Positions 8,271 to 57,972 of a stretch of 64,000 bases of DNA are shown here, in pieces. The notes beneath the pieces were generated by a model, which saw nothing but the letters and a program-made list of their open reading frames with translations, searched no databases and was not told the DNA's origin. Origin of the DNA: an uncultured Clostridia bacterium (GTDB lineage Bacteria; Bacillota; Clostridia; TANB77; CAG-508); assembly GCA_944391835.1 (NCBI GenBank), contig CALXVA010000001.1:3897-67896 (forward strand), read 5' to 3'. The number at the start of each line of letters is the position of its first letter. Position 1 is the first letter of the stretch. The translations under genes and the position numbers were made by a program.

Positions 8271-8271
8271 T

Positions 8272-9645: not shown

Positions 9646-9652
9646 TTCCTCC

Positions 9653-9706: not shown

Positions 9707-9712
9707 TTCACT

Positions 9713-10695: not shown

Positions 10696-10746
10696 CCTGT
10701 CCCTAAAGGTGCCAAATGGCACTTTGGTGACAGGCACTAAAGTGCC
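10696..10746. repeat. REP-like element family 1 (inverted orientation relative to 9653 copy)
   Basis: CCTGTCCCtaaagGTGCCAAATGGCACtttgGTGACAGGCACtaaaGTGCC. Confidence 0.8.
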
Positions 10747-18743: not shown

Positions 18744-18776
18744 CGTGGACAAAAAGGAGTGTCCCCTTTGTCCACG
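18744..18776. repeat. REP-like element family 2 (GTGGACAAA..GGAGTGTCCCC..TTTGTCCAC hairpin)
   Basis: cGTGGACAAAAAGGAGTGTCCCCTTTGTCCACg; other copies at 27328, 32119, 32194, 35998, 36076. Confidence 0.8.
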
Positions 18777-18784
18777 TCTGCTAT

Positions 18785-27327: not shown

Positions 27328-27358
27328 GTGTGTGGACAAAAGGGTCACTCCAATTTGT
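27328..27358. repeat. REP-like element family 2 abutting the tRNA 5' end
   Basis: GTGGACAAAAGGGTCACTCCAATTTGTCCAC. Confidence 0.75.
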
Positions 27359-27420
27359 CCACAAAATTTTTTTTAAATGATTTCTAAAGTCTGTGCATAT
27401 TCGAAGACGAAATGCCTTTC

Positions 27421-28975
<1,555 letters not shown>

Positions 28976-28980
<5 letters not shown>

Positions 28981-32118: not shown

Positions 32119-32225
32119 CGTGGACAAAGGGGACTACTGCCTTTTGTCCACGCTTTAATACCATTATATTATTTATATAAATTTTCTATCTTTGTGGACA
32201 AATAGGAGTGTCCCCTTTGTCCACG
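32119..32225. repeat. pair of REP-like family 2 hairpins (32119-32152 and 32194-32225) in the tpiA-pgk junction
   Basis: cGTGGACAAAGGGGACTACTGCCTTTTGTCCACg and GTGGACAAATAGGAGTGTCCCCTTTGTCCACg, opposite loop orientations, separated by an AT-rich ~40 bp. Confidence 0.8.
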
Positions 32226-33502
32226 TCCATAGCTTTACCTTCTTTTTTTTCTTTTTCTGGTTTATCAGTTAAGCATGAAATTCCTGGTAATACTTTACCC
32301 TCTAATAGTTCAAGTGAAGCTCCTCCACCTGTTGAAATATGAGAAAAGTTATCCTCTAAATGTAACTTTTTAATTGCTGCTACAGAGTCTCCTCCACCTA
32401 CTATAGATATAGATTTTGTAGCTGCTATTGCCTCTGCAACTTTTTCTGTTCCTATACTAAACTTTTCTACTTCGCATATTCCAAGTGGTCCATTCCAAAG
32501 AATAGTCTTTTTGTCTTGTAATTCGTTTGCAAATGTTCTAGCTGTTTTTGGTCCAATATCGCATCCTTGCCATCCAGCTGGAATTTCGTTTGAATTTACA
32601 ACTTTATCTGGAGCTGTTTCTAAGAAGCTTATAAATGCTTTTTGTTTTGCTTTTTTGTCTAATTCTTCTTCTGGCTCTGGTTGTTTTGGTGCTACAACAG
32701 TATCTTCTGGAAGAACTATTTTTACACCTGCAAGTTTTGCCTTATTCATTATTTTTTTAGCTTCTTCTATTTTATCTTCTTCGCATAATGAATCTCCAAT
32801 TTCATGTCCTTGTGCTTTTAAGAATGTATATGCCATTCCTCCACCAATTAAGATTTCGTCTACTTTATCAAGTAAGTTTTCTATAACTCCTATTTTATCA
32901 GATACTTTTGCTCCACCTAGTATTGCTACAAATGGTTTTTCTGGATCCTCTAGAGTTCCATTTAAGAACTTAACTTCTTTTTCCATTAAAAATCCTTCTA
33001 CTGCTTCATCTACATGATGAGCTACACCCTCTGTAGAGCTATGTGCTCTATGTGCTGCTCCAAAAGCATCATTTACATAGATTCCATCTGAAAGATTTGC
33101 AAGTTCCATCGCCATTGTATCATCATTTTGTTCTTCTCTTGGGTCAAATCTAACGTTTTCTAATAGGGCAACATCACCATCAGTTAGGCTATTGGTAACA
33201 CTTTTTGCACTTTCTCCTGTAACATCACTTGCAAATTTAACATCTGTATCTAGTAAATCTTTTAATTCTTCTGCTACTGGTTTTAAAGAATATTCTTCTT
33301 TAACTTCTCCCTTTGGTCTTCCTAAGTGTGAGCATAGTATAACTTTTGCTCCATTATCTCTTAAATATTCTATTGTTGGAAGTGCAGCTGTTATTCTTGT
33401 GTTATCTGTTATTTTTCCATCTTTTAAAGGTACATTAAAATCACATCTTACTAGCACTTTTTTTCCTTTAACATCAACATCTCTTACTGTTTTCTTATTC
33501 AT
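32186..33502 (-). CDS. pgk: phosphoglycerate kinase (C-terminus extended ~40 aa by read-through into a REP-2 copy)
   Basis: N-terminus VRDVDVKGKKVLVRCDFNVPL; the usual end ...LEGKVLPGISCLTDK is followed by PEKEKKEGKAMDVDKGDTPICPQR, whose MDVDKGDTPICP is the translation of GTGGACAAAGGGGACACTCCTATTTGTCCAC. Confidence 0.9.
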   Translation of the reverse strand: MNKKTVRDVDVKGKKVLVRCDFNVPLKDGKITDNTRITAALPTIEYLRDNGAKVILCSHLGRPKGEVKEEYSLKPVAEELKDLLDTDVKFASDVTGESAKSVTNSLTDGDVALLENVRFDPREEQNDDTMAMELANLSDGIYVNDAFGAAHRAHSSTEGVAHHVDEAVEGFLMEKEVKFLNGTLEDPEKPFVAILGGAKVSDKIGVIENLLDKVDEILIGGGMAYTFLKAQGHEIGDSLCEEDKIEEAKKIMNKAKLAGVKIVLPEDTVVAPKQPEPEEELDKKAKQKAFISFLETAPDKVVNSNEIPAGWQGCDIGPKTARTFANELQDKKTILWNGPLGICEVEKFSIGTEKVAEAIAATKSISIVGGGDSVAAIKKLHLEDNFSHISTGGGASLELLEGKVLPGISCLTDKPEKEKKEGKAMDVDKGDTPICPQR

Positions 33503-35997: not shown

Positions 35998-36107
35998 TGT
36001 GGACAAGAGGGACACTCCTTTTTATCCACACTTTAAATTTTTACATGATTTACTATTTATGATAGTGTAGTGACTGTGGGCAAGAAGGAGTGTCCCTCTT
36101 GTCCACG
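35998..36107. repeat. pair of REP-like family 2 hairpins (35998-36030 and 36076-36107)
   Basis: GTGGACAAGAGGGACACTCCTTTTTATCCAC and GTGGGCAAGAAGGAGTGTCCCTCTTGTCCAC with complementary loops. Confidence 0.75.
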
Positions 36108-36112
36108 ATTCA

Positions 36113-41851: not shown

Positions 41852-42003
41852 TATATTACCTCCAACTTATATTTGTTATATGATTTATTTAATTTACTAC
41901 AATCAAATGATTATTGGTTATAATATAATATGTATTACTGTTAATTTTAGTTAATCGTATATTAAATACTTTCCTCTCGAAAAGCAACACTATTTTCCTT
42001 AGA

Positions 42004-42054
42004 CCTGTCACCAGAAGTGCCAAATGGCACTTTTGTGACAGGCACCTGAGTGCC
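42004..42054. repeat. REP-like element family 1
   Basis: CCTGTCACCagaaGTGCCAAATGGCACttttGTGACAGGCACctgaGTGCC. Confidence 0.8.
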
Positions 42055-42109
42055 AAAAAAAGAAGCAACGTAATTGTTGCCCCCTAAATTTCATTCATCT
42101 TTTTTTATT

Positions 42110-44405: not shown

Positions 44406-44801
44406 TTAAACTCTACGTCTTTTTGGTGGTCTACAACCATTATGTGGTATTGGAGTTACGTCCTTAATACTACTAATTTCTAATCCTGCTGATTGTAATG
44501 ACCTAATTGCTGCTTCACGTCCAGAACCTGGTCCTTTAACATAAACTTCTACTGTTTTTAGTCCATGTTCCATTGCTGCCTTAGCTGCTGTTTCAGCTGC
44601 TTCTCCAGCTGCAAATGGTGTACTTTTTCTTGAACCTTTAAATCCAAGTTCTCCGGCACTTGCCCAAGATAATACATTACCTTGAGTATCGCTTATTGTA
44701 ACTATTGTATTGTTAAAACTAGAATGAATATGAGCCATACCTTTTTCGATATTTTTTCTATCTTTTCTTCTAGTTACTTTTTTTGTTACATTTTTAGCCA
44801 T
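44406..44801 (-). CDS. rpsK: 30S ribosomal protein S11
   Basis: [26 protein letters not shown]. Confidence 0.95.
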
Positions 44802-44929
44802 TTTAGTTTTTCCTCCTTTTTAGAATTATTACTATTATGTAAAACTTTTTATTTTTTTATTTTAGAAAACTAATTTTCTTTTTATTCTTTGGTTACAAAA
44901 CAAATCAAAAGCTATTTTATTCTTTCATT

Positions 44930-45180
44930 TGCTTTCATAATTCGAATTAGAAGCGCATCGCTTATAATCAGAATTTCAAAACAAATCAAAAACTATTTTA
45001 TTCTTTCATTTGCTTTCATAATTCGAATTAGAAGCGCATCGCTATAATCAGAATTTCAAAACAAATCAAAAGCAAGTAGTGCTAGGAAAGCTAGCTAAAA
45101 TTTTTGAGATTATACGTATTGTATATCGAAAAAATTTTATGCGACGCTTGACAACGCAATACGAAGCTTTTCATTTGTTT
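44930..45180. repeat. MITE-like family 3 copy (45068-45180) preceded by a tandem duplication of a ~63-bp unit carrying empty TIR pairs (44936-45066)
   Basis: caaaacaaatcaaaagcaagtagtgctaggaaagctagct...ttgacaacgcaatacgaagcttttcatttgttttg with TIR caaaacaaat[c/g]aaaag; upstream ttcgaattagaagcgcatcgct(t)ataatcagaatttcaaaacaaatcaaaaactattttattctttcatttgctttcataa twice. Confidence 0.8.
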
Positions 45181-45182
45181 TG

Positions 45183-45551
45183 CTAGTCTTTTTTGCTCTT
45201 ACTAACCAACTTCCTAGGACCTTTTCTTGTACGAGCATTAGTTTTTGTTCTTTGTCCTCTAACAGGTAAGCCTTTTCTATGTCTTAGACCTCTATAGCAT
45301 CCTATTTCTGTAAGTCTTTTAATATTTAAAGCAACTTCTCTACGTAAGTCTCCCTCTACTTTATAACCTTCCATAGCTTTTCTTATTGCTGCTACTTGGT
45401 CATCTGTTAAATCTTTAACTCTTGTATCTGGATTTACATTTGCTGCTTTTAATATTTTTTGTGAGCTTGTTAAACCTATACCATATATGTATGTTAATCC
45501 AATCTCAACTCTTTTTTCTCTAGGTAAATCAATTCCTGCTAAACGAGCCAT
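45183..45551 (-). CDS. rpsM: 30S ribosomal protein S13
   Basis: [26 protein letters not shown]. Confidence 0.95.
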
Positions 45552-45773
45552 AATTTTTTTAGCACCTCCACTTTGTTTTCTTTTTTTCTTAATTTAAATT
45601 TGTTTTGTTTGGACTTTATTAAAGGTGAAATGCACCGGCCTGCTACCACGCCAGTCTTTAATATGTTTTCAAACAATATATTAAACACAAATTCGATATA
45701 TAACTGTTAGATTATTTTTCTAACAGTTACAGCCGCAATCTAATTTGTGTTATTAACATTTTAATAAATTTTT

Positions 45774-45887
45774 CTATCCTTGTCTTTGTTTGTGTTTAGG
45801 GTTTTCGCAAATAACTCTAATTACACCTTTTCTTTTAATTACTTTACATTTTTCGCATATTGGTTTTACTGATGGTCTTACTTTCAT
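45774..45887 (-). CDS. rpmJ: 50S ribosomal protein L36 (37 aa; not in ORF track)
   Basis: own translation [37 protein letters not shown]. Confidence 0.9.
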
Positions 45888-45941
45888 TTTTTACACCTCA
45901 CTATTTTAGAATTATTTATATATGTTTGGGTTAATCTTAAT

Positions 45942-46160
45942 TTATTTAGCTCTCCAAGTAATTCTTCCACGGTTTAAATCATAAGGAGATAATTCTACTT
46001 TAACTTTATCACCTGGTAGGATTTTAATATAATTCATTCTTAATTTTCCTGAAATATGAGCTAATATTTGATGTCCATTTTCAAGTTCTACTTTAAATGT
46101 AGTATTAGGCAATGTTTCAACAACAGTTCCTTCAACTTCTATAACATCCTCTTTTGACAT
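45942..46160 (-). CDS. infA: translation initiation factor IF-1
   Basis: [19 protein letters not shown]...; track ORF extends 10 codons further upstream. Confidence 0.9.
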
Positions 46161-46233
46161 GATTGTCCTCCATTTTTTATTTTTAGTCAATTATACTATT
46201 TTACATTAAATACCCATATAGTATATAACAAAA

Positions 46234-47004
46234 TTAAACTAATGTCAAGACTTCTGGCTCTTTTTCTGTTATTAAAATAGTATTTTCATAGTGTGCAGAT
46301 AAGCTTCCATCTTGTGTAAGTATTGTCCATCCATCATAGTCTTGATATATATCTCTAGCTCCAGCTATAACCATTGGTTCTATGGCTAATGTCATTCCTG
46401 GTTCTAATCTTACTCCTCTGCCTGCTTTTCCATAGTTTGGTATGCCTGGATCTTCATGCATTTCCCTGCCAATTCCATGGCCTTGAAATTCTCTTACTAC
46501 ATTATATCCATTTTTTTCTACAAATTCGCCAATTGCATGTGATATATCTCCTATTCTGTTTCCTTTTACTGCATATTTAATTCCTTCGAAGAATGCTTTT
46601 TGAGTTATCTCTACCAATCTTTTTGCTTCTTCAGAAGCATTTCCCACTATGAATGTTCTAGCTGCATCTCCATTAAAGCCATCTTTGTATACTACTAAGT
46701 CTATACTTACCACATCCCCATCTCTTATTATTTTTTTATGAGATGGTATTCCATGAATTACCTCATCATTTATTGATATGCATAAGTTTGCAGGAAATGG
46801 AGGTACACCTTTCATACCACTTGGATATCCCTTTTGGGCAGATATTCCTCCATTTTCTTTGATTATCTTTTCGGCAAACTTATCTAATTCCATGGTAGTC
46901 ATGCCAGGTCTAATAACCTTTTCTATTTCTTTGTATACTAATCCTGTAACTCTACAAGCTTCCCTCATCAATTTAATTTCTTTTTCTGATTTTATAGTAA
47001 CCAC
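46234..47004 (-). CDS. map: type I methionine aminopeptidase
   Basis: IKSEKEIKLMREA, metal ligands in DGDVVSIDL / GHGIG / LAIEPM context. Confidence 0.9.
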   Translation of the reverse strand: MVTIKSEKEIKLMREACRVTGLVYKEIEKVIRPGMTTMELDKFAEKIIKENGGISAQKGYPSGMKGVPPFPANLCISINDEVIHGIPSHKKIIRDGDVVSIDLVVYKDGFNGDAARTFIVGNASEEAKRLVEITQKAFFEGIKYAVKGNRIGDISHAIGEFVEKNGYNVVREFQGHGIGREMHEDPGIPNYGKAGRGVRLEPGMTLAIEPMVIAGARDIYQDYDGWTILTQDGSLSAHYENTILITEKEPEVLTLV

Positions 47005-47199
47005 TCTTAACCTCCATTGAATTAGTTAATTTTTTTTACATTTTATTTATAACTAATTGCATCTTCTATTTTATAAGAAAAATTGACTCTTTGCTTAATA
47101 ATTTTGTATTCATAGCAATTTTTCCTATAAAACAAGGTTAGGCTTCCTTGGGCCGTCCGAGTGAAACGAGTGACATATATTTCGCCGTTGCTCCAGAGC

Positions 47200-47874
47200 C
47201 TATCCCTGCGAAATGCCTTTCTTATATTCCTCTAAAAATTTTTTTATATCTTTTACTGCAACATCAACATCTTTTGGATAAATTGTATAAAGTGCATTAT
47301 TTTTTCTATAAAAGTCTACTAAATCTTTAGAATTTTGACGATATATTGCTAGTCTTTTTGTAACTGTTTCTCTATTATCGTCATCCCTCTTTTTAAGCTC
47401 TCCACCACAAATGTCGCATATGCCTTCCTTTTTAGGTGGTTTTGTTTCTTTATTATATATTGCTCCACAAGATTTATTTGAACAGATAAGTCTATTCACA
47501 ACTCTTCTTATAATTTCATCATCTGGAACATCTAATTCTATAGCTACTCTTTTTGCATTAGGCTTATTTTCTTTTAAGAAATTCTTTAATGCTTCTGCCT
47601 GCATAGCTGTTCTAGGAAATCCATCAAGAATTGCTCCATTTTCAACATCTTTTTCCAATAATCTTGTTTTAACTGTTTCTATAACTACATCATCTGGAAC
47701 TAATGCTCCACTTTCCATGTAACTTTTAATTTTTTTCCCAAGTTCTGTTTCTCTACTTATTTGGTCTCTAAATATATCTCCTGTCGAAATATGTGTTAAG
47801 TCCAAATCTTGTGATAATATTTTTCCTATTGTTCCTTTTCCAGTACCTGGAGCTCCTAGCATTACTATGTACAT
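47200..47874 (-). CDS. adk: adenylate kinase (with zinc-binding lid CxxC...CxxC)
   Basis: MYIVMLGAPGTGKGT P-loop (start 47874 after AGGAG), LID CSNKSCGAIY...CDICGG. Confidence 0.9.
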   Translation of the reverse strand: MYIVMLGAPGTGKGTIGKILSQDLDLTHISTGDIFRDQISRETELGKKIKSYMESGALVPDDVVIETVKTRLLEKDVENGAILDGFPRTAMQAEALKNFLKENKPNAKRVAIELDVPDDEIIRRVVNRLICSNKSCGAIYNKETKPPKKEGICDICGGELKKRDDDNRETVTKRLAIYRQNSKDLVDFYRKNNALYTIYPKDVDVAVKDIKKFLEEYKKGISQG

Positions 47875-48042
47875 TGTAATCACAACTCCTAATCTCATTA
47901 ACTTAATTTTGTTATATATTTTAATTTCTATAGACAAATAAATTCGTTCCATTTTTCTACATGTTGTACATTTTTATATTAAATTATTTTTATATATTCA
48001 AATGTACAACATGTAATGGAACTAGTAAAATGTCTTTATATA

Positions 48043-49386
48043 TTATTCTAAGAATCCCTTATAATGTCTCATTACTAATTGAGATTCTAATTGTTGTATT
48101 GTTTCTAATGCAACACCTACAACGATTAATATTGAAGTTCCTCCAAATGCTATATTTATATTTGGTATAAATCTTATAAGCATTGGAAGTATCGCGATTA
48201 TTGCTAGGTATAAACCTCCAAACCAAGTTAATTTACTTATTATTGATGATAAGTAATCCGTTGTTGGTTTTCCTGCTCTTATTCCTGGTATGAATCCACC
48301 ATTTTTCTTTATATTATTTGATACTTCTGCTGGATTAAATGTTGCATAAGTATAGAAAAATGTAAATCCTACTATTAGTAATAAGTATACAATCGCATTT
48401 GCTATTGTGTATCCCCAACCAACTGATGAAGTTGATGAAGCAATAGAGAAATTATATATTACACTCCAAAAACCAGTTTGGCTTGCTATGTCTGGTATAA
48501 ACATTTGTATAATCATTGCTGGAAATGTTAGGAATGATGAAGCAAAGATTATTGGCATTACACCTGCCATAACTAATTTTAATGGTATATGCGTATTTTG
48601 AGCTCCAACCATTTTTCTTCCAACTACTCTTTTCGAGTATTGTACAGGAACTCTTCTTTCAGCTTGTTGTACAAATATAACTGCTGCTATTAATATAATA
48701 GCTCCTATTATAATTCCTAAAGCTATCAATAAACCTGTTGTAGAGAACGATCTTGTTATTGGGTCTGAAGATACTATTGGCATTATCAAATCCCAAATTG
48801 ATGTTACTGCACCAGGTAGTCCAGCTATTATACCTACAAATATAATAATTGAAATTCCATTTCCGATTCCTTTATTGGTAATTTCGTCACCTAACCACAT
48901 AAGTAGAGCAGTACCAGCCATCAATGATATAACAACTGTTGCTCCTGTTATGAAGTTTGTTTCTAAGAATATTCCAGATGAACTATATGATAAGTATAAT
49001 CCTAAACCTTCAATTAAAGCTAAGAATACAGTAAGAATTTTGGTATATTTATTTATTTTCTTTCTGCCTTCTTCTCCTCCCTCTTTAGTTAATCTTTCTA
49101 AAGCTGGGATTACCATGCTAAGTAATTGAATTACTATTGATGCTGTAATGTATGGGCTTATAGACATTGCAAAGATAGAAAATCTTGAGAAAGCTCCACC
49201 TGAAATTAAGTCTATAAGAGCCGCCATACCATTTGTTTCTCCAAAAGCTTCACTTAATGCAAAAGTATCAACTCCTGGAACTGTTATGTAACATCCTAAT
49301 CTAAATATTACAATTAACAATAATGTATATAATAATTTTTTTCTAACATCAGGTGTTTTTAGTGCATTTTTAATGGTTTTAAACAA
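48043..49386 (-). CDS. secY: preprotein translocase subunit SecY
   Basis: 10-TM profile, N-terminus MFKTIKNALKTPDVRKKLLYTLLLIVIFRLG. Confidence 0.95.
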   Translation of the reverse strand: MFKTIKNALKTPDVRKKLLYTLLLIVIFRLGCYITVPGVDTFALSEAFGETNGMAALIDLISGGAFSRFSIFAMSISPYITASIVIQLLSMVIPALERLTKEGGEEGRKKINKYTKILTVFLALIEGLGLYLSYSSSGIFLETNFITGATVVISLMAGTALLMWLGDEITNKGIGNGISIIIFVGIIAGLPGAVTSIWDLIMPIVSSDPITRSFSTTGLLIALGIIIGAIILIAAVIFVQQAERRVPVQYSKRVVGRKMVGAQNTHIPLKLVMAGVMPIIFASSFLTFPAMIIQMFIPDIASQTGFWSVIYNFSIASSTSSVGWGYTIANAIVYLLLIVGFTFFYTYATFNPAEVSNNIKKNGGFIPGIRAGKPTTDYLSSIISKLTWFGGLYLAIIAILPMLIRFIPNINIAFGGTSILIVVGVALETIQQLESQLVMRHYKGFLE

Positions 49387-49821
49387 CTAAATCACCTCAG
49401 CCTTTCCTCCTAAAGCTTCTATTTTTTCAATAGCTGCTTTAGTAAATCTTACAGCTTTAACTGTTAATTTCTTATCTAATTTGCCAGTTGCAAGTATAAC
49501 TATTCCGTCATTTGCTTTGCTAATTATTCCATCTTTAATTAGGCTTTCAGCTGTAACTTCATTTGTTGTTGCTTTATTAAGCATTGTTAAAGTCACTTCA
49601 GTATAGTTATTAGCATGGATATTTGTGAATCCTCTTTTTGGTAATCTTCTATATAATGGTGTCTGACCACCTTCAAAGCCTCTTCTTACTCCACCACCAG
49701 ATCTTGCTTTTTGACCTTTATGACCTCTTCCTGAAGTTTTTCCTAAACCAGAACCAACTCCACGTCCAACTCTAGTTCTAGTTCTATTTTTTTGTGCTGG
49801 CTTTAATTCGTCTAATTTCAT
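49387..49821 (-). CDS. rplO: 50S ribosomal protein L15
   Basis: [37 protein letters not shown]. Confidence 0.95.
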
Positions 49822-49856
49822 CTTGCTACTACACCTCCTATTTTTCTTGATTTATC

Positions 49857-50381
49857 CTATAAAATATCTTCTACTTTTTTTCCTCTTTTTTTAGCTACTG
49901 TTTCAACAGTTTGCATAGATTTTAAACCTTCTATTGTAGCATAAACAACATTTCTTGGATTATTTGTTCCAATTATTTTTGTTCTTATATTTCTATATCC
50001 TGCTAGTTCTAGTACAGGTCTAACACTACCACCTGCGATAATTCCAGTACCTTCTTCAGCTGGTTTTAATAGTACATTAGCACTTCCAAATTTTCCAACA
50101 TATTCGTGTGGTATAGTTGTTCCTACTACTGGAACTGTTACTAAGTTCTTTTTAGCATCTTCAATAGCCTTTTTGATAGCGTCTGGAACTTCGGCTGCTT
50201 TTCCATTACCTACACCAACGTGTCCATTTTCGTCACCAACAACAACTACTGCACTAAATCTAAAAGTTCTACCACCTTTAACAACCTTTGCAACTCTGTT
50301 AATAGCTACAACTTTTTCTTTTAATTCAGATGTATTTTCTGATTGCACTTTTCTTTCCTCCTTTTCTTTTTTAGAATTCAA
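49857..50381 (-). CDS. rpsE: 30S ribosomal protein S5 (only 35 bp to rplO: no rpmD/L30 gene)
   Basis: [27 protein letters not shown]. Confidence 0.95.
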
Positions 50382-50730
50382 GTCCGCCTTCTCTTGCAGC
50401 GTCTGCTAATTCCTTAATAACTCCGTGGTATACATATCCACCTCTATCAAAAACTACTGTTTTGATATTTTTTTCTAATGCTCTTTTAGCAATTAGACTT
50501 CCAACTTCTTTAGCTGCTTCTTTATTAGCATGTTTTGTTTTTACTTCTTTATCAATAGTAGAAGCTTGAGTTAAAGTAACTCCTTTAACATCATCTATTA
50601 CTTGTACATATAAATTGCTGTTACTTCTAAATACACATAGTCTTGGACATTCAGCTGTTCCAGAAATTTTTCTACGTACTCTAGCATGTCTTCTTTGTCT
50701 TTCAGCTTTTCTATCTATTTTTGTAATCAT
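50371..50730 (-). CDS. rplR: 50S ribosomal protein L18
   Basis: [24 protein letters not shown]. Confidence 0.95.
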
Positions 50731-50785
50731 TTTAAAATCTCCTTTCTAACTAAAAGATTTTGCTCTTAGTTTATTTTAGATTATA

Positions 50786-50906
50786 TGTTTAAGTCAAAAG
50801 CGAGTATTGCTAGGCGAACGAATAAAAATTTTTGAGATTGTACGGGGTGTACATCGAAAAAATTTTTATGAAGTTCAACAACGCAAGACGAAGCTTTTCA
50901 TTTAAA
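50786..50906. repeat. MITE-like family 3 copy (rplR-rplF spacer)
   Basis: gtcaaaagcgagtattgctaggcgaacgaataaaaatttttgagattgtacggggtgtacatcgaaaaaatttttatgaagttcaacaacgcaagacgaagcttttcattt. Confidence 0.85.
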
Positions 50907-50909
50907 CAA

Positions 50910-51449
50910 TTATTTTTTACCTGCTTTACCTTCCTTACGTCTAATATGCTCTTCAGCATACTTAATACCTTTTCCTCTATATACTTCTGGTGGTCTTTTT
51001 GTTCTTACAACTGCTGCTGTTTGGCCAACTAGTTCTTTGTCTATTCCTCTTACTGTAATATGGTTAGCATCTGGAACATCAAAAGTAATTCCTGCTGGTG
51101 GATCCATCTCAACTGTGTGAGAATATCCTAAGTTCATTACTAATTTATTTCCTTTCTTTTGAGCTCTGTAACCTACACCATTGATTTCTAAATCTCTTTT
51201 ATATTCATGAACAACACCTTCAATCATGTTGTTTATTAATGTTCTTGTTAAACCATGTAAACTTCTATTAGCTGGTTCATCATCACATCTTGTTATTGTT
51301 AAGACTTTATCATTTAAAGTAACTGTCATATTTTTATGTAAGTCTTTTTCTAATGTTCCTTTTGGTCCTTTTACAGTTATGTGATGTCCATCTATTTTAA
51401 CTTCTACACCTTCTGGTACATTGATAGGTTTGTTTCCTATTCTTGACAT
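50910..51449 (-). CDS. rplF: 50S ribosomal protein L6
   Basis: MSRIGNKPINVPEGVEVKIDGHHITVKGPKG. Confidence 0.95.
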   Translation of the reverse strand: MSRIGNKPINVPEGVEVKIDGHHITVKGPKGTLEKDLHKNMTVTLNDKVLTITRCDDEPANRSLHGLTRTLINNMIEGVVHEYKRDLEINGVGYRAQKKGNKLVMNLGYSHTVEMDPPAGITFDVPDANHITVRGIDKELVGQTAAVVRTKRPPEVYRGKGIKYAEEHIRRKEGKAGKK

Positions 51450-51477
51450 CTTCTTATTTCCCTCCTTCTTTTTTCCA

Positions 51478-51597
51478 GAATTAATGAAAACCTGCGTATT
51501 GCTATGTCAATCTTCGCTTCAAAATTTTCGATGTACATATGTACTATCTCAAATTTTTAGCTTGATTTCCTTGCACTACTTGGTTTTGATTAATTCT
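51478..51597. repeat. MITE-like family 3 copy, inverted orientation (rplF-rpsH spacer), 14-bp TIR gaattaat[g/c]aaaac
   Basis: gaattaatgaaaacctgcgtattgctatgtcaatcttcgcttcaaaattttcgatgtacatatgtactatctcaaatttttagc...gttttgattaattc. Confidence 0.85.
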
Positions 51598-51631
51598 TAA
51601 TTAATCAAATTACATTTTATCAACTTATCTT

Positions 51632-52030
51632 CTACCAAACGTAAGCTAGGACTTCTCCTCCTAGTCCTTCATTTCTTGCTTCTTTATCTGTTTTTATTCC
51701 TTTTGAAGTAGATATAAGAGCTATACCTAAACCATTTAATACTTTAGGTAATTCATCTTTAGATGCATATACTCTTAAACCTGGTTTACTTATTCTTTTT
51801 ATTCCATCAATAACTCTTTTACCTTTTTCATCATATTTTAGAGTTATTCTTAATATTCCTTGACGAGAATCATCTATTTCTTCAAAAGAAGCTATATATC
51901 CTTCTTTAAATAGGATATCTGCAATAGCTCTTTTCATATTTGATGCTGGAACATCAACTGTTTTATGTTTAGAACTATTAGCATTTCTTATTCTTGTTAA
52001 CATATCTGCTATTGGATCTGTTGTATTCAA
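51632..52030 (-). CDS. rpsH: 30S ribosomal protein S8
   Basis: [15 protein letters not shown]. Confidence 0.95.
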
Positions 52031-52094
52031 TTTATTTTCCCTCCTTCTTTTAAAATTGGATTTTGCACATTAAATATTGATTTTCAAGCGAATT

Positions 52095-52280
52095 TTACCA
52101 GCTAGCCTTCTTAACACCTGGTATCTCACCTTTATGAGCTAACTCTCTAAAGCATACACGGCAAATTCCAAATTTTCTGATATATGCGTGTGGTCTTCCA
52201 CAAATTTTGCATCTATTATATTCTCTTGTTTTGAATTTTTGTGGTCTTTGTTGTTTTACTTTTAAAGATTTCTTTGCCAT
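52095..52280 (-). CDS. rpsN: 30S ribosomal protein S14 type Z (zinc-binding, 61 aa)
   Basis: [48 protein letters not shown]. Confidence 0.95.
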
Positions 52281-52351
52281 TTTATTCTCCTTTCCCCAAT
52301 TTTTATATAAAATATTATTTCATTTTTATTTATTTTCTATTGATTGTAAAA

Positions 52352-52472
52352 TTAATCAAAAGCGAGTATTGCTAGGAAAGCTAGCAAAAAAGTTTGAAAT
52401 AATACTTTGTGTATATTGAGAACTTTTTTGCGACGCTTAGGCACGCTAAGTACGAAACTTTTCATTAATTTT
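52352..52472. repeat. MITE-like family 3 copy (rpsN-rplE spacer) with gctag-gaaa-gctagc sub-hairpin
   Basis: aattaatcaaaagcgagtattgctaggaaagctagcaaaaaagtttgaaataatactttgtgtatattgagaacttttttgcgacgcttaggcacgctaagtacgaaacttttcattaatt. Confidence 0.85.
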
Positions 52473-52475
52473 ACT

Positions 52476-53015
52476 CTAGTTTTTAAATGGCATTCCTAAA
52501 AGAGTTAAAAGTTCTCTAGCTTCTTCGTCTGTTTTAGCTGTTGTAACGAAAATTATATCCATTCCTCTAATTTTGTCTATTTTATCATATTCGATTTCTG
52601 GGAATATTAATTGTTCTTTAATTCCCATAGAATAATTTCCTCTACCATCAAATGAATTGCTTGAAACTCCTCTAAAGTCTCTAACTCTTGGAAGTGCTAC
52701 ATTGAATAGTTTATATGCAAAATCATACATTTTTCCTTTTCTTAATGTAACTTTACATCCCATATTTATTCCTTCTCTTATTTTGAAGGCTGCTATAGCT
52801 TTCTTAGCTTTTGTTATAATTGGTTTTTGACCAGTTATAATTGTAAGATCGTTTATAGCATTTTCTAATGATTTAGGATTATCTTTTGTATCACCTAAAC
52901 CTATATTTATAACTATTTTATCTAACTTTGGAACTTCCATAACTGATTTATAGTTAAATTTCTTCATCATTGCTGGTATAATTTCTTTTTCATATTGCTC
53001 TCTTAAAATTTCCAT
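52476..53015 (-). CDS. rplE: 50S ribosomal protein L5
   Basis: ORF 52476-53015, 179 aa, at the L5 position (after L24, before S14) in the conserved spc-operon order; family assigned from position and length, not from a motif read in the sequence. Confidence 0.95.
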
Positions 53016-53042
53016 AAGTTTAAATAGTCCTCCTCTCTTTCA

Positions 53043-53351
53043 TTATTTTAATTTTGCTCCACATTTTTGGCAAACACGTACTTTTTCATTTTTTTCTATT
53101 TTATATTGAACTCTTGTAGCCTTTCCGCATTTTGGACATACTACATTTACTTTACTGCTATGAATAGCACACTCAACTGGAATAATTCCACTTTCTTCTC
53201 CTTGCTTTCTAGCTTTTACGTGTTTTTTTCTTATATTAACACCTTTTACTATTACTTTTTCTGTTTTTGGTATTACTTCTAAAACTTCACCAGTTTTTCC
53301 TTTATCGTTTCCTGATAAAACTTTAACTGTATCACCTTTCTTTATTCTCAT
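53043..53351 (-). CDS. rplX: 50S ribosomal protein L24
   Basis: MRIKKGDTVKVLSGNDKGKTGEVLEV; KOW motif. Confidence 0.95.
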   Translation of the reverse strand: MRIKKGDTVKVLSGNDKGKTGEVLEVIPKTEKVIVKGVNIRKKHVKARKQGEESGIIPVECAIHSSKVNVVCPKCGKATRVQYKIEKNEKVRVCQKCGAKLK

Positions 53352-53435
53352 TTATTTTTCACCTCTTCTTTCAAGTGAGATTTATATTTTATCTTGTATA
53401 CTTTCTGTCTTAAAAAGAAACAAGTATTACTAATT

Positions 53436-53702
53436 TTTTACTCTTGTCTTAAAACGAATTTAGAACGAGTAATGCTAGGCAATTAAAATTTAAAATACCG
53501 GAGGCGTACTTTTTTCCACGCCAAAGAATTTTTAAATTTTAATAACAATTCTTTATTACTGTTATAAATCATTTTATTTAGTAGTCTTTCAAAGAAACAA
53601 GTAGTGCTAGGAAAAATTAATTTCAAAACCGGAGGTGTGCTTTTTGCTACACACGAGGATTTTGGGATTAATTTTGACAACGCAAGACGCCGTTTATTTT
53701 TA
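53436..53702. repeat. two tandem divergent family 3-related elements (about 53440-53560 and 53578-53700) filling a 354-bp rplX-rplN spacer
   Basis: both carry agta(a/g)tgctagg and ccggagg(c/t)gt...loops; the second ends in ttgacaacgcaagacgccgttt like canonical copies; the spurious ORF 53483-53725 lies across them. Confidence 0.7.
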
Positions 53703-53705
53703 AGA

Positions 53706-54074
53706 CTATAATACTTCTGGGGCAAGAGAAAGTATCTTCATATAATCCTTTTCTCTTAATTCTCTTGCAACAGGTCCAAATATACGAGTTCCTCTTGGTG
53801 TTCCATCTTCTCTTATTATAACTGCTGCATTCTCATCAAATCTTACATAAGATCCATCGGCTCTTCTTGTAGGCTTTTTAGTTCTTACTACAACAGCTTT
53901 AACAACGTCACCTTTTTTTACAACTCCACCTGGAATAGCTGTTTTTACAGAAGCTACTATTATGTCACCAATTCTAGCATATTTTCTATATGATCCGCCT
54001 AGACATCTGATACACATAATTTCTTTTGCGCCTGTATTATCTGCTACTTTTAATATAGATTGTTGTTGTACCAT
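53706..54074 (-). CDS. rplN: 50S ribosomal protein L14
   Basis: [23 protein letters not shown]. Confidence 0.95.
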
Positions 54075-54092
54075 CTTATTTTTTCCTCCTTA

Positions 54093-54356
54093 CTATTTAA
54101 TTACTGCCTTCTCTAATATTTCAACTACTCTCCATCTTTTATCTTTTGATAGAGGTCTAGTTTCCATTACTCTTACTTTATCTCCAACTTGGCATTCATT
54201 TTTTTCATCATGAGCTTTTAATTTATATGTTCTTTTTTGAACTTTACCATATGTTTTATGTTTTTCGTTCATTTGAACAGATACAACTACTGTTTTGTCC
54301 ATCTTGTCTGATGAAACGATACCAACCATTTCTTTACGAAGATTTCTTTCTTCCAT
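54093..54356 (-). CDS. rpsQ: 30S ribosomal protein S17
   Basis: [21 protein letters not shown]. Confidence 0.95.
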
Positions 54357-54375
54357 GTTAAATCTCCTTTCTTAA

Positions 54376-54576
54376 TTATTTATTTTCTGCTAATTTTCTT
54401 TCAGTTAAAACTGTTTTTATTCTTGCTATGTCTTTCTTAACTTCTTTTATTTTCATAGGATTATCTAATCCATGAGTTGCTAAGCTAAATCTTAGTTTAA
54501 ATAACTCTGATTTTAATTCTCCTAATTCTTTTTCTAAGTCAGGTGAAGACATTTCTTTTATTTTATTTATCTTCAT
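54376..54576 (-). CDS. rpmC: 50S ribosomal protein L29
   Basis: [38 protein letters not shown]. Confidence 0.9.
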
Positions 54577-55006
54577 CTATTTCACCACCTATTTCAGTTT
54601 CCTTTTGTACAAATTTGCACTTTACAGATAGTTTGTTTGCAGCAAGTCTTAAAGCTTCTTTTGCAACGTCTTCTGTAACGTCTGCAAGTTCAAACAATAT
54701 TCTACCTGGTTTTACATTTGCTACCCAAAATTCAACAGCACCTTTACCTTTACCCATACGAGTACCAATAGGTTTTCTTGTAATTGGTTTGTCTGGGAAT
54801 ATTTTTATCCAAACTTTACCACCTCTTTTAATGTAACGTGTCATTGCAACACGGGCAGCTTCTATTTGGTTTGATGTGATTTGACCAGCTTCTAAAGCTT
54901 GTAATCCATATAATCCATCTGTTACTCTATTTCCTCTTGTAGCTTTTCCTCTATTTCTACCTTTTTGTTGTTTTCTATATTTTGTTCTTTTTGGTATTAA
55001 TGGCAT
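54563..55006 (-). CDS. rplP: 50S ribosomal protein L16
   Basis: [25 protein letters not shown]. Confidence 0.95.
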
Positions 55007-55668
55007 TATTTGTCTCCTCCTTCCACTACTTTCTTTTTAGTAGGAAGAACTTCTCCTTTATATATCCAAACTTTTACACCGATTTTTCCATAAGTTGTAT
55101 CTGCTTCTGCAAATCCATAATCTATATCAGCTCTTAAAGTTTGAAGTGGAATAGTTCCTTCTTTATAGAATTCAGTTCTAGCCATATCCGCTCCACCTAA
55201 TCTACCAGATACTGCAGTTTTTATTCCTAAAGCACCTGCTTTCATAGTTTTTTGCATACATTGTTTCATAGCTCTTCTGAAAGATATTCTTCTTTCTAGT
55301 TGTCCTGCTATATTTTCTGCAACTAATTGAGCATCTAAGTCTATATTTTTAACCTCAACTATATTTAAGTTTACTTCCTTCTTAATCATTTTTTCAAGCT
55401 CTGCTTTTAAGCTTTCAGCTAAGTTTCCACCTTTTCCTATTATAATTCCTGGTTTAGCTGCATAAACATTCACTCTAACAAATTTAGCTGTTCTTTCAAT
55501 CTCTATTTTAGAAATTCCAGCTGCATATAATTTTTTCTTAACATACACACGGATTTTATGATCTTCTACTAGGTAATCTCCAAAATCTTTCTTGTCTGCA
55601 TACCATTTAGAATTCCAGTCTTTTATAACACCAACTCTTAATCCATGTGGATCCATTTTTTGTCCCAT
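55006..55668 (-). CDS. rpsC: 30S ribosomal protein S3
   Basis: [24 protein letters not shown]; KH domain. Confidence 0.95.
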
Positions 55669-55695
55669 TTTGTAAATGTCCTCCTTTCCTTTCTA

Positions 55696-56055
55696 CTAAT
55701 CTCTCTCTTTTAATATTATTGTTACATGGCTTGTTCTTTTTCTAATTCTAACTGCTGAACCTTTTGCTGCAGGTCTTATTCTTTTTAATGTTGGACCTTG
55801 GTTTGCAAATATATCAGCAACATATAATTTTTCATGAGCCATGTGATGGTTATTTTCAGCATTTGCTATAGCTGATTTTAATAATTTTTCTAACATTTCT
55901 GATGAAGCTTTTGGTGTGTATTTTAAAATTGCTAAAGCTTCATTTATATCTTTACCTTTAATTAAATCTGCTACAATTTTAACTTTTCTTGAAGAAATTC
56001 TAGCATATTTAAGAGTAGCTTCTGCTTGTGGTATTATTTCTTGCTTTGCTTCCAC
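55696..56055 (-). CDS. rplV: 50S ribosomal protein L22
   Basis: AEATLKYARISSRKVKIVADLIKG. Confidence 0.95.
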   Translation of the reverse strand: MEAKQEIIPQAEATLKYARISSRKVKIVADLIKGKDINEALAILKYTPKASSEMLEKLLKSAIANAENNHHMAHEKLYVADIFANQGPTLKRIRPAAKGSAVRIRKRTSHVTIILKERD

Positions 56056-56088
56056 TTCTCATTCCCTCCTTAATTTATTATCTCTATC

Positions 56089-56370
56089 TTACTTTGTTGT
56101 TGTAGTTGTTTTCTCTCCTGAATGTCCTTTAAATGTTCTTGTTGGTGCAAACTCACCTAATTTATGTCCTATCATTTCTTCTGAAATATATACTGGTACA
56201 TGTTTTCTTCCATCATGTACAGCTATTGTATGTCCAACCATTTGTGGATATATTGTAGAAGCTCTAGACCATGTCTTTATTACTTCTTTTTTTCCACTTT
56301 CATTCATTGCTTCAATTCTTTTTAAAAGTTCTGGTGCAACAAATGGAGCTTTTTTGCTTGATCTTGACAT
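56089..56370 (-). CDS. rpsS: 30S ribosomal protein S19
   Basis: [20 protein letters not shown]...[16 protein letters not shown]. Confidence 0.95.
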
Positions 56371-56395
56371 TTAACTATTCCTCCTTTATAAGATT

Positions 56396-57223
56396 TTATT
56401 TTCTTCTCTTAACCATGAATTTATCTGTTCTATTATTTTTCTTTCTTGTCTTATATCCAAGTGCTGGTTTACCCCAAGGTGTCATTGGTCCTGCGTGTCC
56501 AACTGGAGCTCTACCTTCACCACCACCATGTGGGTGATCTACTGGGTTCATAACAGAACCTCTAACTGTTGGTCTCCATCCCATGTGTCTTTTTCTACCA
56601 GCTTTACCAAGTTTAACATTTTCATGTTCTTGGTTTCCAACTGTACCCACTGTAGCTTTACATACAGACATTACAAGTCTCATTTCTCCTGATGGTAATC
56701 TTACGTGAGCATATTTTCCTTCCTTAGCCATTAATTGTGCTTCTTGTCCGGCAGCTCTAACTAATTTTCCACCTTGACCCGGATTTAATTCTATGTTGTG
56801 AATCATAGTACCAACTGGTATATTCTCGATTCTCATACAATTTCCTGGTTTAATATCTGCTTTATCTCCAGATATTACTGTTGCACCATCTGTTAATCCT
56901 ACTGGTGCTAATATATATGCCTTTTCTCCATCTTCATATTGAATTAGAGCTATATTTGCGCTTCTATTTGGATCATATTCTATACCAATAACTGTTGCTG
57001 GCATATCTACTTTATTTCTTTTAAAATCAATTATTCTATATTTTTGTCTATTTCCTCCACCTTGATGTCTAACTGTGATTTTACCTTGTGCATTTCTTCC
57101 TGCTTTTTCTTTCTTTGTTGTAATTAAAGATTTTTCAGGAGTTTTTTTAGTAATTTCACTATAATCTAAAACTGTCATGTTTCTTCTTGATGGTGTATAG
57201 GCTTTGAAATGTTTCATTCCCAT
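56396..57223 (-). CDS. rplB: 50S ribosomal protein L2
   Basis: [21 protein letters not shown]...[10 protein letters not shown]. Confidence 0.95.
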
Positions 57224-57237
57224 TTTTTTCTCCTCTC

Positions 57238-57624
57238 TCGAATTTATGAAAAACTTCGTCTTACGTTGTCAATCTTCGCAAATGTTTCCTCGATATACAC
57301 TCGTATTATCTCGTCAACATTATACTCGATTTCCTAGTAATACTCGTTTTTGCTAAATTCTCTACTCTACTTTCTTAATAAATTTACGGATTTTTTCCTG
57401 CTCCGTATTGCAGATAAAATTTATTTTCCGGGTTATTTCCCGATAGTTTTTTACAATTATAAAACGGATTTAAATCACGCCGTCTTTTAACTCCACTTTC
57501 CTAAGACAAATCAAAAATGGTAGATTGCTAGGAAAACAAGTAAAAATTTTTGAGATAGTACTTTGTGTACATCGAAAAAATTTTTATGAAGTTTGACAAC
57601 GCAAGATGCCGTTTTTCATTTGTC
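57238..57624. repeat. 400-bp rplW-rplB spacer holding two family 3 elements in opposite orientation (57238-57353 inverted; 57505-57624 direct) around a further hairpin segment
   Basis: 57238 tcgaatttatgaaaaacttcgtcttacgttgtcaatcttcgc...tcctagtaatactcgtttttg is the reverse complement of the family consensus; 57505 ctaagacaaatcaaaaatggtagattgctaggaaaacaagtaaaaatttttgagatagtactttgtgtacatcgaaaaaatttttatgaagtttgacaacgcaagatgccgtttttcatttgtcttaag with 17-bp TIR. Confidence 0.85.
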
Positions 57625-57972
57625 TTAAGCTCCCATAAATTCATCAATAGAATCTTTATACTTCTTACTTAATTTAACTTCTTTTCCACCTTTAGCAAGG
57701 TAAGATTTTTCTGAAGCATTTGTATCTATTGTAACGATTGCTTTTTTCCAGTCAGATGTTTTTCCAACATTTCTTCCAACTCTTTTTTCTTTTCCTTTAA
57801 CCATTACTGTATTAACATTTAATACCTTAACTTCAAATAATTTTTCTACAGCATTTTTTATGTCTATTTTTGTAGCTTTTTTATTTACTTTAAAAGTGTA
57901 CTTTCCTTCTTGTATTCCATCGCTACTTTTTTCAGTAACAACTGGAGCTATTATTATATCTTCTGCCACCAT
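57625..57972 (-). CDS. rplW: 50S ribosomal protein L23 (with ~20-aa C-terminal extension)
   Basis: [24 protein letters not shown]; 115 aa against the usual ~95. Confidence 0.9.

Follow-up and report, generated by a model that had tools for sequence, protein, structure and literature searches.

REP elements stabilise the upstream mRNA and, when located within 15 nt of a stop codon, reduce translation through ribosome stalling; REP/BIME elements also bind gyrase and IHF. The ERIC (IRU) sequences of enterobacteria and yersiniae are 127-bp imperfect palindromes situated in transcribed intergenic regions, where they give rise to a long RNA hairpin; depending on their orientation, they are reported to affect how stable the flanking mRNA is, and insertion at TA and occurrence in both orientations have also been reported. 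To our knowledge, neither the origin of ERIC nor its mobilising enzyme has been established, and we know of no concentration of ERICs in ribosomal-protein operons or at stop codons. The Correia (NEMIS) elements of Neisseria, which resemble miniature inverted-repeat transposable elements (MITEs), are 100–150 bp long and co-transcribed with neighbouring genes. RNase III cuts the hairpins formed by their paired ends and thereby alters mRNA levels; they also have 26-bp terminal inverted repeats that are well conserved, together with a TA duplication, promoter elements and an IHF site. The RNase III sites of the phage T7 early genes are imperfect hairpins with internal loops that lie between the cistrons of a long, highly expressed transcript and leave a protective 3' hairpin on the upstream message; their orientation matters for single-sided cleavage, and they are shorter than the repeat described below and not a dispersed family. 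Integron attC sites and the Vibrio cholerae repeats are imperfect palindromes of 60–140 bp that follow each stop codon directly and in one shared orientation. attC is recognised as a folded single strand with conserved extrahelical bases, its structure is kept more than its sequence, and its ends (RYYYAAC/GTTRRRY) are conserved while its centre is variable. Here we describe a dispersed repeat of about 125 nt in a 64,000-nt stretch of DNA from an uncultured Clostridia bacterium (assembly GCA_944391835.1, contig CALXVA010000001.1, positions 3,897–67,896 of the forward strand; hereafter the window, numbered from its first nucleotide). The repeat forms an imperfect hairpin in the spacers of ribosomal-protein genes and looks like a new family of the REP/ERIC type.

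REP/BIME elements and REPINs are proteobacterial and mobilised by REP-associated tyrosine transposases (RAYTs) (PMC3116915, PMC5581495, bioRxiv 10.1101/2021.07.10.451892). The 125-nt repeat resembles them in being a short extragenic palindromic repeat, present many times per genome, located downstream of genes and, as we infer, co-transcribed with them; like them it is a hairpin of two inverted halves, lacks a target duplication and persists vertically for long periods as populations of similar sequences, here as subtype clusters shared across species. Unlike REPs, its ~55-nt arms pair mutually and neither arm is itself a short palindrome, a conserved GTAG-type tetranucleotide is lacking (GTAG occurs in some copies only, GTAT being commoner), the repeat lies inside core operons and not mostly at operon ends, its orientation bias and stop-codon contact are much stricter, and its host is a Gram-positive-type clade of uncultured Clostridia. 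In REPIN–RAYT systems the RAYT gene is flanked by its cognate repeat, whereas the RAYT-like gene found here has another repeat family on its flanks. By description the repeat also comes close to ERIC, being nearly equal in size, a single imperfect palindrome throughout, intergenic within operons and presumably transcribed there, but it differs in its preferred orientation, its contact with stop codons and its ribosomal-protein operon hosts. With Correia elements it shares the size class and an intercistronic, putatively co-transcribed hairpin, whereas its termini are its most variable part, no duplication was seen and no promoter signal was found. The likeness to the T7 sites, read here from sequence alone, consists in an imperfect intercistronic hairpin with internal loops, and that to attC in an imperfect palindrome after the stop codon with a single dominant orientation. 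Unlike in attC, however, the ends are variable and the centre is conserved, attC-type core sites are lacking, the flanking genes keep the canonical S10/spc/alpha order and there is no integrase nearby.

Copies were located with a repeat finder, a 10-sequence alignment, an nhmmer profile and a covariance model (CM) run without filters over all 64 kb, and the four approaches agreed on an identical set of window copies. The window contains eight full copies (CM scores of 75–151 bits, E-values of 1e-12 to 5e-28) and two to three fragments (Table 1). Seven full copies lie within the ~15-kb S10/spc/alpha cluster, and one lies upstream of eno in a glycolytic operon with the order gap–pgk–tpi–pgm–(TIGR01741-family gene)–repeat copy–eno. 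The remaining ~45 kb of the window holds zero copies, and the unfiltered CM search of the 64 kb gave no other new site above 23 bits. The window has a GC content of 30% and carries nearly all its genes on the minus strand; the six copies in the majority orientation match the CM on that strand, that is, in operon sense, and two copies are inverted. NCBIfam models confirmed the ribosomal-protein genes at the long spacers (L23/L2, L14/L24, L5/S14, S8/L6, L6/L18 and S13/S11), so that the gene pairs named in an earlier note on this DNA (rplW/rplB, rplN/rplX, rplE/rpsN, rpsH/rplF, rplF/rplR and rpsM/rpsK) are correct. The central claim of that note was likewise supported: the repeat is a dispersed family of hairpin-forming sequences, and it lengthens ribosomal-protein spacers that are normally tiny. 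The coordinates in its list of copies were essentially right, except that 44930–45180 resolves into one full copy (45047–45194) and an arm duplication (44893–45043), and that of the two divergent copies placed at 53436–53702 one is complete (53572–53720) and the other (~53435–53560) lacks the second arm.

Each full window copy folds into a single imperfect hairpin of ~125 nt, with z-scores of -5 to -8.8 against dinucleotide shuffles; the median hairpin span is 125 nt. A consensus structure was derived from 65 representative copies of many species, aligned in operon sense, and comprises 37 pairs in 7 helices. Paired cells amounted to 95.7%, compared with 76.4% in column shuffles and 38–54% when the partner was slid by 1–3 columns. 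Compensatory double changes were found in 34 of the 37 pairs (472 cells), although these paired-cell counts overstate the number of evolutionary events because copies of one subtype are not independent observations. In a separate count over 115 copies, there were 4903 Watson–Crick pairs, 106 G-T, 41 A-C and 347 other combinations.

Two parts of the hairpin can be distinguished. The core of ~100 nt is conserved in sequence, and its mismatches and internal loops are fixed in both place and sequence (for example, a G/G mismatch near the base and the loop GTTGTCAA opposite TCCTA); core subtypes are told apart by the central hairpin, such as GAGATAGTAC versus CCGGAGGCGTAC. The basal stem of 7–14 bp is free in sequence, while its complementarity is always kept. 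As the earlier note had observed of the outer repeat, this stem varies from copy to copy: there are 66 distinct outer arms among 84 copies, always complementary (median of 9 Watson–Crick pairs), the arms vary even inside one core subtype, and conservation peaks in the interior. The sequence 3' of the hairpin is not shared between same-subtype copies at different junctions, indicating that the repeat unit is the hairpin alone; a downstream tail as part of the repeat was rejected on these grounds. The extra spacer beyond the hairpin is often debris of older copies.

Other features that might define the element were considered and rejected. A mini-open reading frame (ATGAAAAGCTTCGTCTTGCGTTGT...) lacks its ATG in about one-third of the copies (the TTATAAGC and AATCAGCA arm types). 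A TTGACA box as part of an internal promoter has no usable -10 box and shows no excess over shuffles. Intrinsic terminators or attenuators were predicted at 7 sites against 4.1 expected, none of them the repeat hairpin in operon sense; the sense flank 3' of the hairpin is A-rich. Judged by eye, no K-turn, IHF site or LexA box in the conserved loops fits its consensus.

To survey other genomes, 185,579 species genomes were scanned with one central-hairpin pattern, which gave at least 116 stretches, the basis of the related loci referred to below by L numbers. A clear full-repeat match was present in at least 106 stretches from at least 85 species-level assemblies, all of them metagenome-assembled genomes (MAGs) of uncultured gut bacteria (human, rabbit, chicken, goat and mouse). 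They are labelled Clostridia, Clostridium sp. (CAG:508, CAG:567, CAG:575 and CAG:273) or Bacillota, with a single Eubacteriales, a single Bacilli and two 'uncultured bacterium' entries. The uncultured order TANB77 has CAG-508 as one of its major families (PMC11680825), and the lineage that carries the repeat is probably to be placed in this order and family. Pattern matches in Marinomonas, Bacillus cereus and a Bacteroidia MAG were due to chance, the repeat not being present there. No match was obtained in 50,697 phage records, 72,556 plasmids or viral contigs, and a phage, plasmid or virus as horizontal vehicle was discarded because the searches of all three collections were empty. The suggestion that the repeat is undescribed held: no description was found in the literature searched, a gathering-threshold scan of the window with Rfam 15 returned tRNA only, and a permissive Rfam 15 scan of 44800–57700 gave two chance-level matches (E-values of 2.5 and 3.5), neither of them on a repeat copy. 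In short-read MAGs, the distance from a pattern match to a contig end is often no more than ~150 nt (L003, L012, L026, L034, L041 and others). The repeat probably breaks assemblies of its host MAGs, even inside ribosomal-protein operons.

In the loci taken from the matches listed, with genes called as simple open reading frames (ORFs), 96 of 100 copies between co-directional genes have the identical orientation. The earlier statement that copies occur in both orientations is thus true of the window, where two of eight are inverted, and misleading for the family as a whole. Apparent convergent or divergent placements were mostly caused by spurious antisense ORFs inside rplJ–rplL, rplW–rplB and similar pairs. 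Inverted copies occur at two junctions only, rpsH–rplF and the rplB-proximal site of rplW–rplB, and at both they adjoin the next ribosome-binding site. For 95 copies in the majority orientation, we measured the distance from the last base of the upstream stop codon to the first paired base. This base falls within -30 to +3 of the stop-codon end in 63 copies, with modes at 0 (26 copies) and -2 (10 copies), indicating that the stop codon is usually part of the basal stem; the copies outside this range are mostly second members of tandem arrays or follow uncertain ORF calls. The median distance to the next start codon is 91 nt, and the next gene always has its own strong Shine–Dalgarno sequence further downstream. 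Only 1 of 138 full copies lies inside a called ORF, which is 79 aa long.

Besides S10/spc/alpha, the neighbouring genes fall into 38 clusters. Host junctions include, in addition to those of S10/spc/alpha, rpsL–rpsG, rpsG–fusA, nusG–rplK, rplK–rplA, rplJ–rplL, grpE–dnaK, accB–fabZ, pta–ackA, hydB–hydA, pyrK–pyrD, pyrH–frr, rimM–trmD, infC–rplT, queA–tgt and a nifU-like/GGGtGRT pair; EF-G, DnaK, FabZ, Pta/AckA, HydA/B, PyrH/Frr, RimM/TrmD, IF-3/L20, QueA/Tgt and L1 were named by eye from translations, family scans confirming only some of the partners. The host operons are housekeeping operons, mostly of the translation apparatus, and we assume from their gene content that they are highly expressed. 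All of them lie on the purine-rich, presumably leading strand, so that the directions of replication and transcription are inseparable as a cue for orientation. Among the related operons, the most often occupied junction is rplF–rplR (13 of 16 by nhmmer, the CM adding L112), and copies are also found at rplW–rplB (6 of 7), rpsM–rpsK (4 of 5), rplN–rplX (7 of 16), rpsN–rpsH (7 of 17) and rplE–rpsN (5 of 18). The junctions rplX–rplE (0/18), rpmC–rpsQ (0/16) and rplV–rpsC (0/10) were never occupied, and their spacers are similar in length to occupied ones. Zero copies were found in the ftsK–radA–truA region of relatives (three stretches of ~20 kb).

A junction table drawn up over ~25 related operons revealed presence/absence polymorphism at orthologous sites. 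The closest relative, L029, is 96–98% identical to the window and is without the rplE–rpsN, rpsH–rplF and second rplN–rplX copies, the spacers there measuring 32, 27 and 178 nt, in line with the filled and empty sites that had been anticipated. Empty orthologous spacers (e.g. TAATTTATACAAAAAGGAGGG, TAATTAGATTTTTATAAAGAAGAAAGGAG, TAAATCCAATTAAAAGAAGGAGGG) carry neither a dyad nor a target duplication, which contradicts the earlier idea that each copy sits inside a pre-existing local dyad. At some 'empty' sites a leftover arm marks the earlier presence of a copy (L015, L021, L062 and, in the window, the rpsN–rpsH spacer), indicating that loss by deletion is frequent. In tandem arrays (L040, L111, L103, L004, L094, and rplN–rplX and rpsM–rpsK of the window), the intact copy adjoins the stop codon, and copies further away dwindle step by step to the 3' (sense) arm.

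Core subtypes cross both junctions and species. One was found at nusG–rplK, rplN–rplX, rpsL–rpsG, rplF–rplR and rplJ–rplL in five assemblies, and another at rplW–rplB, accB–fabZ, rplJ–rplL and the nifU-like junction. Conversely, the same junction can hold different subtypes despite 97–99% identity of the flanking coding sequence, as in L106 versus L015/L021 (rplF–rplR) and L028 versus L073 (rplJ–rplL). At grpE–dnaK, accB–fabZ, pta–ackA and hydB–hydA, same-junction cores are 93–96% identical where third-codon identity is 0.32–0.62. The outer stem tends to be junction-specific irrespective of the core (AAAA[CT]AAAT at rplN–rplX with four core types; TTTAAAT at rplF–rplR) and drifts by compensated change, as seen in the 53572–53720 copy, where the window has TAGTCTT/AAGACTA and L029 TAATCTT/AAGATTA. 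Thus, copies are gained, lost, tandemly duplicated and subtype-swapped on the time scale of species divergence. Positional conservation among relatives, which the earlier note had taken to speak against colonisation by a mobile repeat, was found to the extent that the same junctions recur in dozens of species, and empty sites exist as well. Because of this recurrence and the junction-specific outer stem, the pattern appears partly old and vertically inherited, not one of fresh colonisation.

The label MITE does not fit the repeat. Conserved terminal inverted repeats are lacking, the outermost 7–14 bp being the most variable part, and the flanks showed no direct target-site duplication, being inverted (e.g. 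TTAAGACAAAT...ATTTGTCTTAG); a 2-bp palindromic TA may be duplicated. A palindromic duplication of TTAA or longer was rejected for most copies, since arms like TAAGACAAAT/ATTTGTCTTA match in inverted and not in direct orientation. Neither a parent element nor a pair of half-elements bracketing a gene was found in the window or in 0.8 Mb of loci, and there is no transposase or parent insertion sequence beside any of ~140 copies.

The window does encode an IS200-like Y1 protein (9713–10525, minus strand; 270 aa, Pfam Y1_Tnp domain) whose best NCBIfam model is 'REP-associated tyrosine transposase', at 64 bits and thus below the cut-off of 80. A separate palindromic repeat, of GGCAC type (TTTGGCACTT..GTGCCATTTGGCAC..GGGACAGGTT), lies on either side of its gene in inverted copies. 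The gene is single-copy and syntenic in relatives (GH15 gene–Y1–radA–disA) at 52–72% identity in other gut assemblies; its homologues in L117 and L121 are flanked by the same kind of repeat (GTCAC/GACAGG), and L124 has a GGGACAAA-type repeat downstream. No copy of the 125-nt repeat lies within ~10 kb of the window Y1 gene or in the syntenic Y1 loci of relatives. Since the gene is flanked by the GGCAC-type repeat and has no 125-nt copy near it, the Y1 protein looks like the partner of the former, and it was rejected as the mobilising enzyme of the latter. Together, the Y1 gene and the GGCAC-type repeat have the look of a RAYT/REP system that has been passed on vertically within a Clostridia lineage.

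A third palindromic repeat family (GTGGACAAAAAGGAGTGTCCCCTTTGTCCAC) was noticed at 18745–18778, 27332–27365, 32194–32227, 35999–36032 and 36076–36109; it has eight pattern matches in the window and almost none in related loci. A motif resembling it, GGGACAAA..CTGTCCCC..GGGACAAA, is located just downstream of the RAYT-like gene in L124/L125, and the GTGGACAAAAAGGAGTGTCCCCTTTGTCCAC family may belong with the RAYT.

Table 1. Repeat copies, remnants and the second palindromic repeat in the window (minus strand, operon sense; CM, covariance model)
Feature	Position	Strand	Support	Remarks
Full copy, majority orientation, rplW–rplB spacer	57492–57639	-	CM 139 bits; fold -36.8 kcal/mol, z -6.4	rplW stop codon within basal stem (GC-TTAAGACAAAT...ATTTGTCTTAGG)
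Full copy, inverted, just 5' of rplB ribosome-binding site	57240–57360	+	CM 104 bits	Orthologous inverted copies in L029, L030, L083, L097
Full copy, divergent subtype (central hairpin CCGGAGGTGTGC...), rplN–rplX spacer	53572–53720	-	CM 75 bits; fold z -6.2	rplN stop codon inside stem
Decayed copies 3' of the intact rplN–rplX copy	53395–53560	-	Alignment, fold, CM 20 bits	Truncated copy ~53435–53560 (one arm and central hairpin) and arm fragment 53395–53450; L029 lacks both
Full copy, rplE–rpsN spacer, begins 1 nt past rplE stop codon	52337–52485	-	CM 124 bits	Site empty (spacers 21–48 nt) in 13 of 18 related operons, closest relative L029 included
Arm remnant AAATTCGCTTGAAAATCA in rpsN–rpsH spacer (64 nt), no intact copy	52031–52094	-		Full copy at this junction in 7 related operons
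Full copy, inverted, rpsH–rplF spacer, adjoins rplF ribosome-binding site	51464–51608	+	CM 113 bits	Common to L103; missing from L029
Full copy, rplF–rplR spacer, begins 2 nt past rplF stop codon	50775–50921	-	CM 146 bits	
Full copy, rpsM–rpsK spacer, begins directly past rpsM stop codon (TAG-CAAAACAAAT...)	45047–45194	-	CM 151 bits	
Tandem duplication, 2 x 81 bp, 97% identical	44893–45043	-	Repeat finder; CM 22 bits	Two extra copies of 3' (sense) terminal arm and flank, downstream of intact copy; decay or duplication debris
Full copy, glycolytic operon, between TIGR01741-family gene and eno (27421–28722)	28841–28989	-	CM 124 bits; fold z -6.5	Hairpin base touches stop codon of upstream gene
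GGCAC-type repeat	8213–8279, 9646–9715, 10694–10753, 42000–42064		Repeat finder	

We tentatively read these copies as a lineage-specific family of REP/ERIC-class hairpin repeats of uncultured gut Clostridia whose role is that of an intercistronic module in housekeeping operons, with the stability or processing of mRNA as its probable target; our confidence in this reading is limited. Because the repeat lies inside operons and has no promoter or terminator signal, it would be transcribed within the polycistronic mRNA. There, the ~55-bp RNA hairpin would insulate neighbouring cistrons and block 3'-to-5' exonucleases on behalf of the upstream cistron, and it might in addition serve as a site of double-strand or structure-adjacent cleavage, as do REP, ERIC and Correia elements and the T7 RNase III sites. 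With the stop codon in the basal stem, each terminating ribosome would have to open this stem, so that the hairpin's state would follow the translation of the upstream gene and the next gene would lose its termination–reinitiation coupling. The conserved core may be the recognition site of some protein. The RNase-processing or stabilising role that was proposed for the hairpin in the earlier note is plausible.

Several observations weigh against a module acting on mRNA. Transcription, processing and stabilisation are each deduced indirectly. The copies are dispensable: they are missing from close relatives, and remnants of deletions are found. A hairpin with a plain protective role should function either way round, and the 96:4 orientation bias therefore needs an extra assumption. 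G-U cells on the mRNA strand number ~14 of 2402, compared with ~34 A-C cells, which correspond to G-U on the opposite strand, and in 109 of 117 copies the complement of the mRNA strand is the better folder, the mean difference being 7 kcal/mol. Selection on the sense strand at the RNA level would not predict its weaker fold, which is compatible with a DNA-level constraint or with copies made recently from a constrained master. Our main reservation is that the almost pure Watson–Crick pairing, taken with the better folding of the non-mRNA strand, favours such a DNA-level constraint. In addition, the sample was ascertained through one central-hairpin pattern, and all relatives are MAGs that were examined as 8-kb blocks.

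It seems rather doubtful that the repeat is non-autonomous and purely selfish, being moved in the form of a folded single DNA strand by an enzyme supplied in trans (HUH/Y1, of IS200/IS605 or RAYT type, or a structure-specific recombinase). Strand-specific insertion into the exposed single-stranded DNA of heavily transcribed leading-strand operons would then account for the bias in orientation and hosts, selection would keep only those insertions that lie just past stop codons, and any effect on RNA would be incidental. Strict Watson–Crick pairing with conserved mismatches is typical of protein-recognised folded DNA, and a mobile strand would agree with the missing target-site duplication, with near-identical cores at different junctions and in different species, with the subtype differences between 97–99% identical relatives and with the position of the youngest-looking tandem copy, next to the stop codon. 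The genome encodes a Y1 enzyme, and the many copies at contig ends of short-read MAGs are expected for multi-copy repeats. Yet the sole Y1 gene found is flanked by a different repeat, both in the window and in two of three syntenic relatives, and no transposase adjoins a copy. Selfish copies that are fixed at a locus should decay neutrally, whereas orthologues with the same outer stem keep 93–96% core identity at saturated synonymous divergence. The better-folding strand is the template of transcription and of the leading strand, which is less exposed, and nothing in the phage, plasmid and viral collections could carry the repeat between hosts.

We consider it unlikely that the repeat is a protein-recognised signal of 'operon punctuation', installed strand-specifically at stop codons of the most heavily used operons throughout an uncultured gut order and renewed there, for which one clade-specific partner both spreads the repeat and sets the relative output of neighbouring cistrons, making it a mobile cis-regulatory element kept by the host and no parasite. 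The partner, which would read the sequence-constrained core, would be a ribonuclease or RNA-binding protein if it acts on mRNA, and a recombinase if its target is the folded DNA strand. The readings as an mRNA module, a selfish element and a host DNA site are not exclusive, since the mode of spread and the reason for retention may differ.

A host element working at the DNA level, with the duplex or a cruciform as a site for gyrase, topoisomerase or a nucleoid protein, as proposed for enterobacterial BIMEs, and with the RNA hairpin as a by-product, appears improbable. The Watson–Crick constraint is symmetrical, wobble being rare on both strands, the repeat is restricted to housekeeping operons that are presumably the most heavily transcribed, and proteins could make contact at its conserved internal loops; a duplex or cruciform site has, however, no obvious need of a fixed orientation or of a start exactly at the stop codon. 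AT-rich, interrupted stems make cruciform extrusion kinetically unfavourable, and the stems of the 125-nt repeat are of this kind. Ancient operon-internal regulatory leaders (ribosomal-protein autoregulatory sites or attenuators), vertically inherited and repeat-like by appearance, are already disfavoured and highly improbable: the recurrence of the same junctions across at least 85 species, with junction-specific outer stems and strong core conservation, would suit them, but the identical core also follows unrelated genes (grpE, accB, pta, hydB, pyrK and the nifU-like gene) and is therefore not a site specific to one ribosomal protein, close relatives have clean empty sites, subtypes are swapped at one junction between genomes that are 97–99% identical in flanking genes, there is neither an Rfam leader or attenuator match nor a terminator signature, and the copies of each junction do not form a clade in the core phylogeny.

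Further features of the host operons were noted. In the glycolytic operon, a TIGR01741-family ('staph tandem hypothetical') gene (28976–29782, minus strand) is inserted between pgm and eno, with the repeat directly after its stop codon. Between the two rplW–rplB copies, positions 57361–57491 form a conserved segment (..CGGGAAATAACCCGGAAAATAAATTTTATCTGCAATACGGAGCAGGAAAAAATCCGTAAAT..) with two small hairpins upstream of rplB, kept across species at 78–94% coding identity (L029, L030, L071, L083, L097 and L100); the rplW–rplB spacer of L024, L030 and L083 seemingly also contains a small extra ORF. A small hairpin at 50731–50775 (ACTAAGAGCAAAATCTTTTAGT; ACTAATGCTGTTACATTAGT in relatives) just precedes the rplR ribosome-binding site and is also present at the empty site of L001; as it is found with or without the repeat, it is a separate native feature. 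The rpmJ–rpsM spacer (45552–45773 in the window) measures 205–311 nt in all eight operons examined (with L022, L032, L041, L043, L062, L089 and L104), contains no repeat copy and no Rfam match, and could be a conserved promoter or leader for the alpha-operon part.

Unrelated hairpin-forming inserts occupy rplN–rplX in L070 (168 nt), rpsH–rplF in L001 (158 nt) and rpsQ–rplN in L024/L001 (~98 nt). Since such inserts use these junctions, ribosomal-protein spacers seem generally permissive or attractive for structured inserts. No ORF for rpmD (L30) was seen between rpsE and rplO (49387–50381), where the spacer is 35 nt in the window and 15–225 nt in relatives. Elsewhere in the window, a palindromic structure of ~250 bp lies between two genes at 3967–4221, with arms 4008–4045/4137–4174 (95%) and 3967–3999/4189–4221 (94%); its CM score is weak and at chance level.

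Ribosomal-protein operons are among the most compact and conserved gene arrays of bacteria, with spacers of 0–30 nt and translational coupling as the rule. A 125-nt hairpin that touches the stop codon, in one orientation, is present here at as many as six junctions of a genome, and in at least 85 species of an uncultured gut clade with reduced genomes. This clade probably belongs to TANB77, an order whose abundance has been linked to the response to cancer immunotherapy (PMC11680825). The repeat is a lineage-specific marker of its hosts and probably breaks short-read assemblies of their MAGs. If it is selfish, it would demonstrate that a repeat can maintain itself where a genome is most constrained, and would point to a mechanism of strand-specific insertion not yet known. 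If it acts on mRNA, these bacteria would provide a natural system in which a portable module sets expression within operons, and the purpose of REP/ERIC-type repeats would become testable, with many independent gains, losses and subtype swaps to compare.

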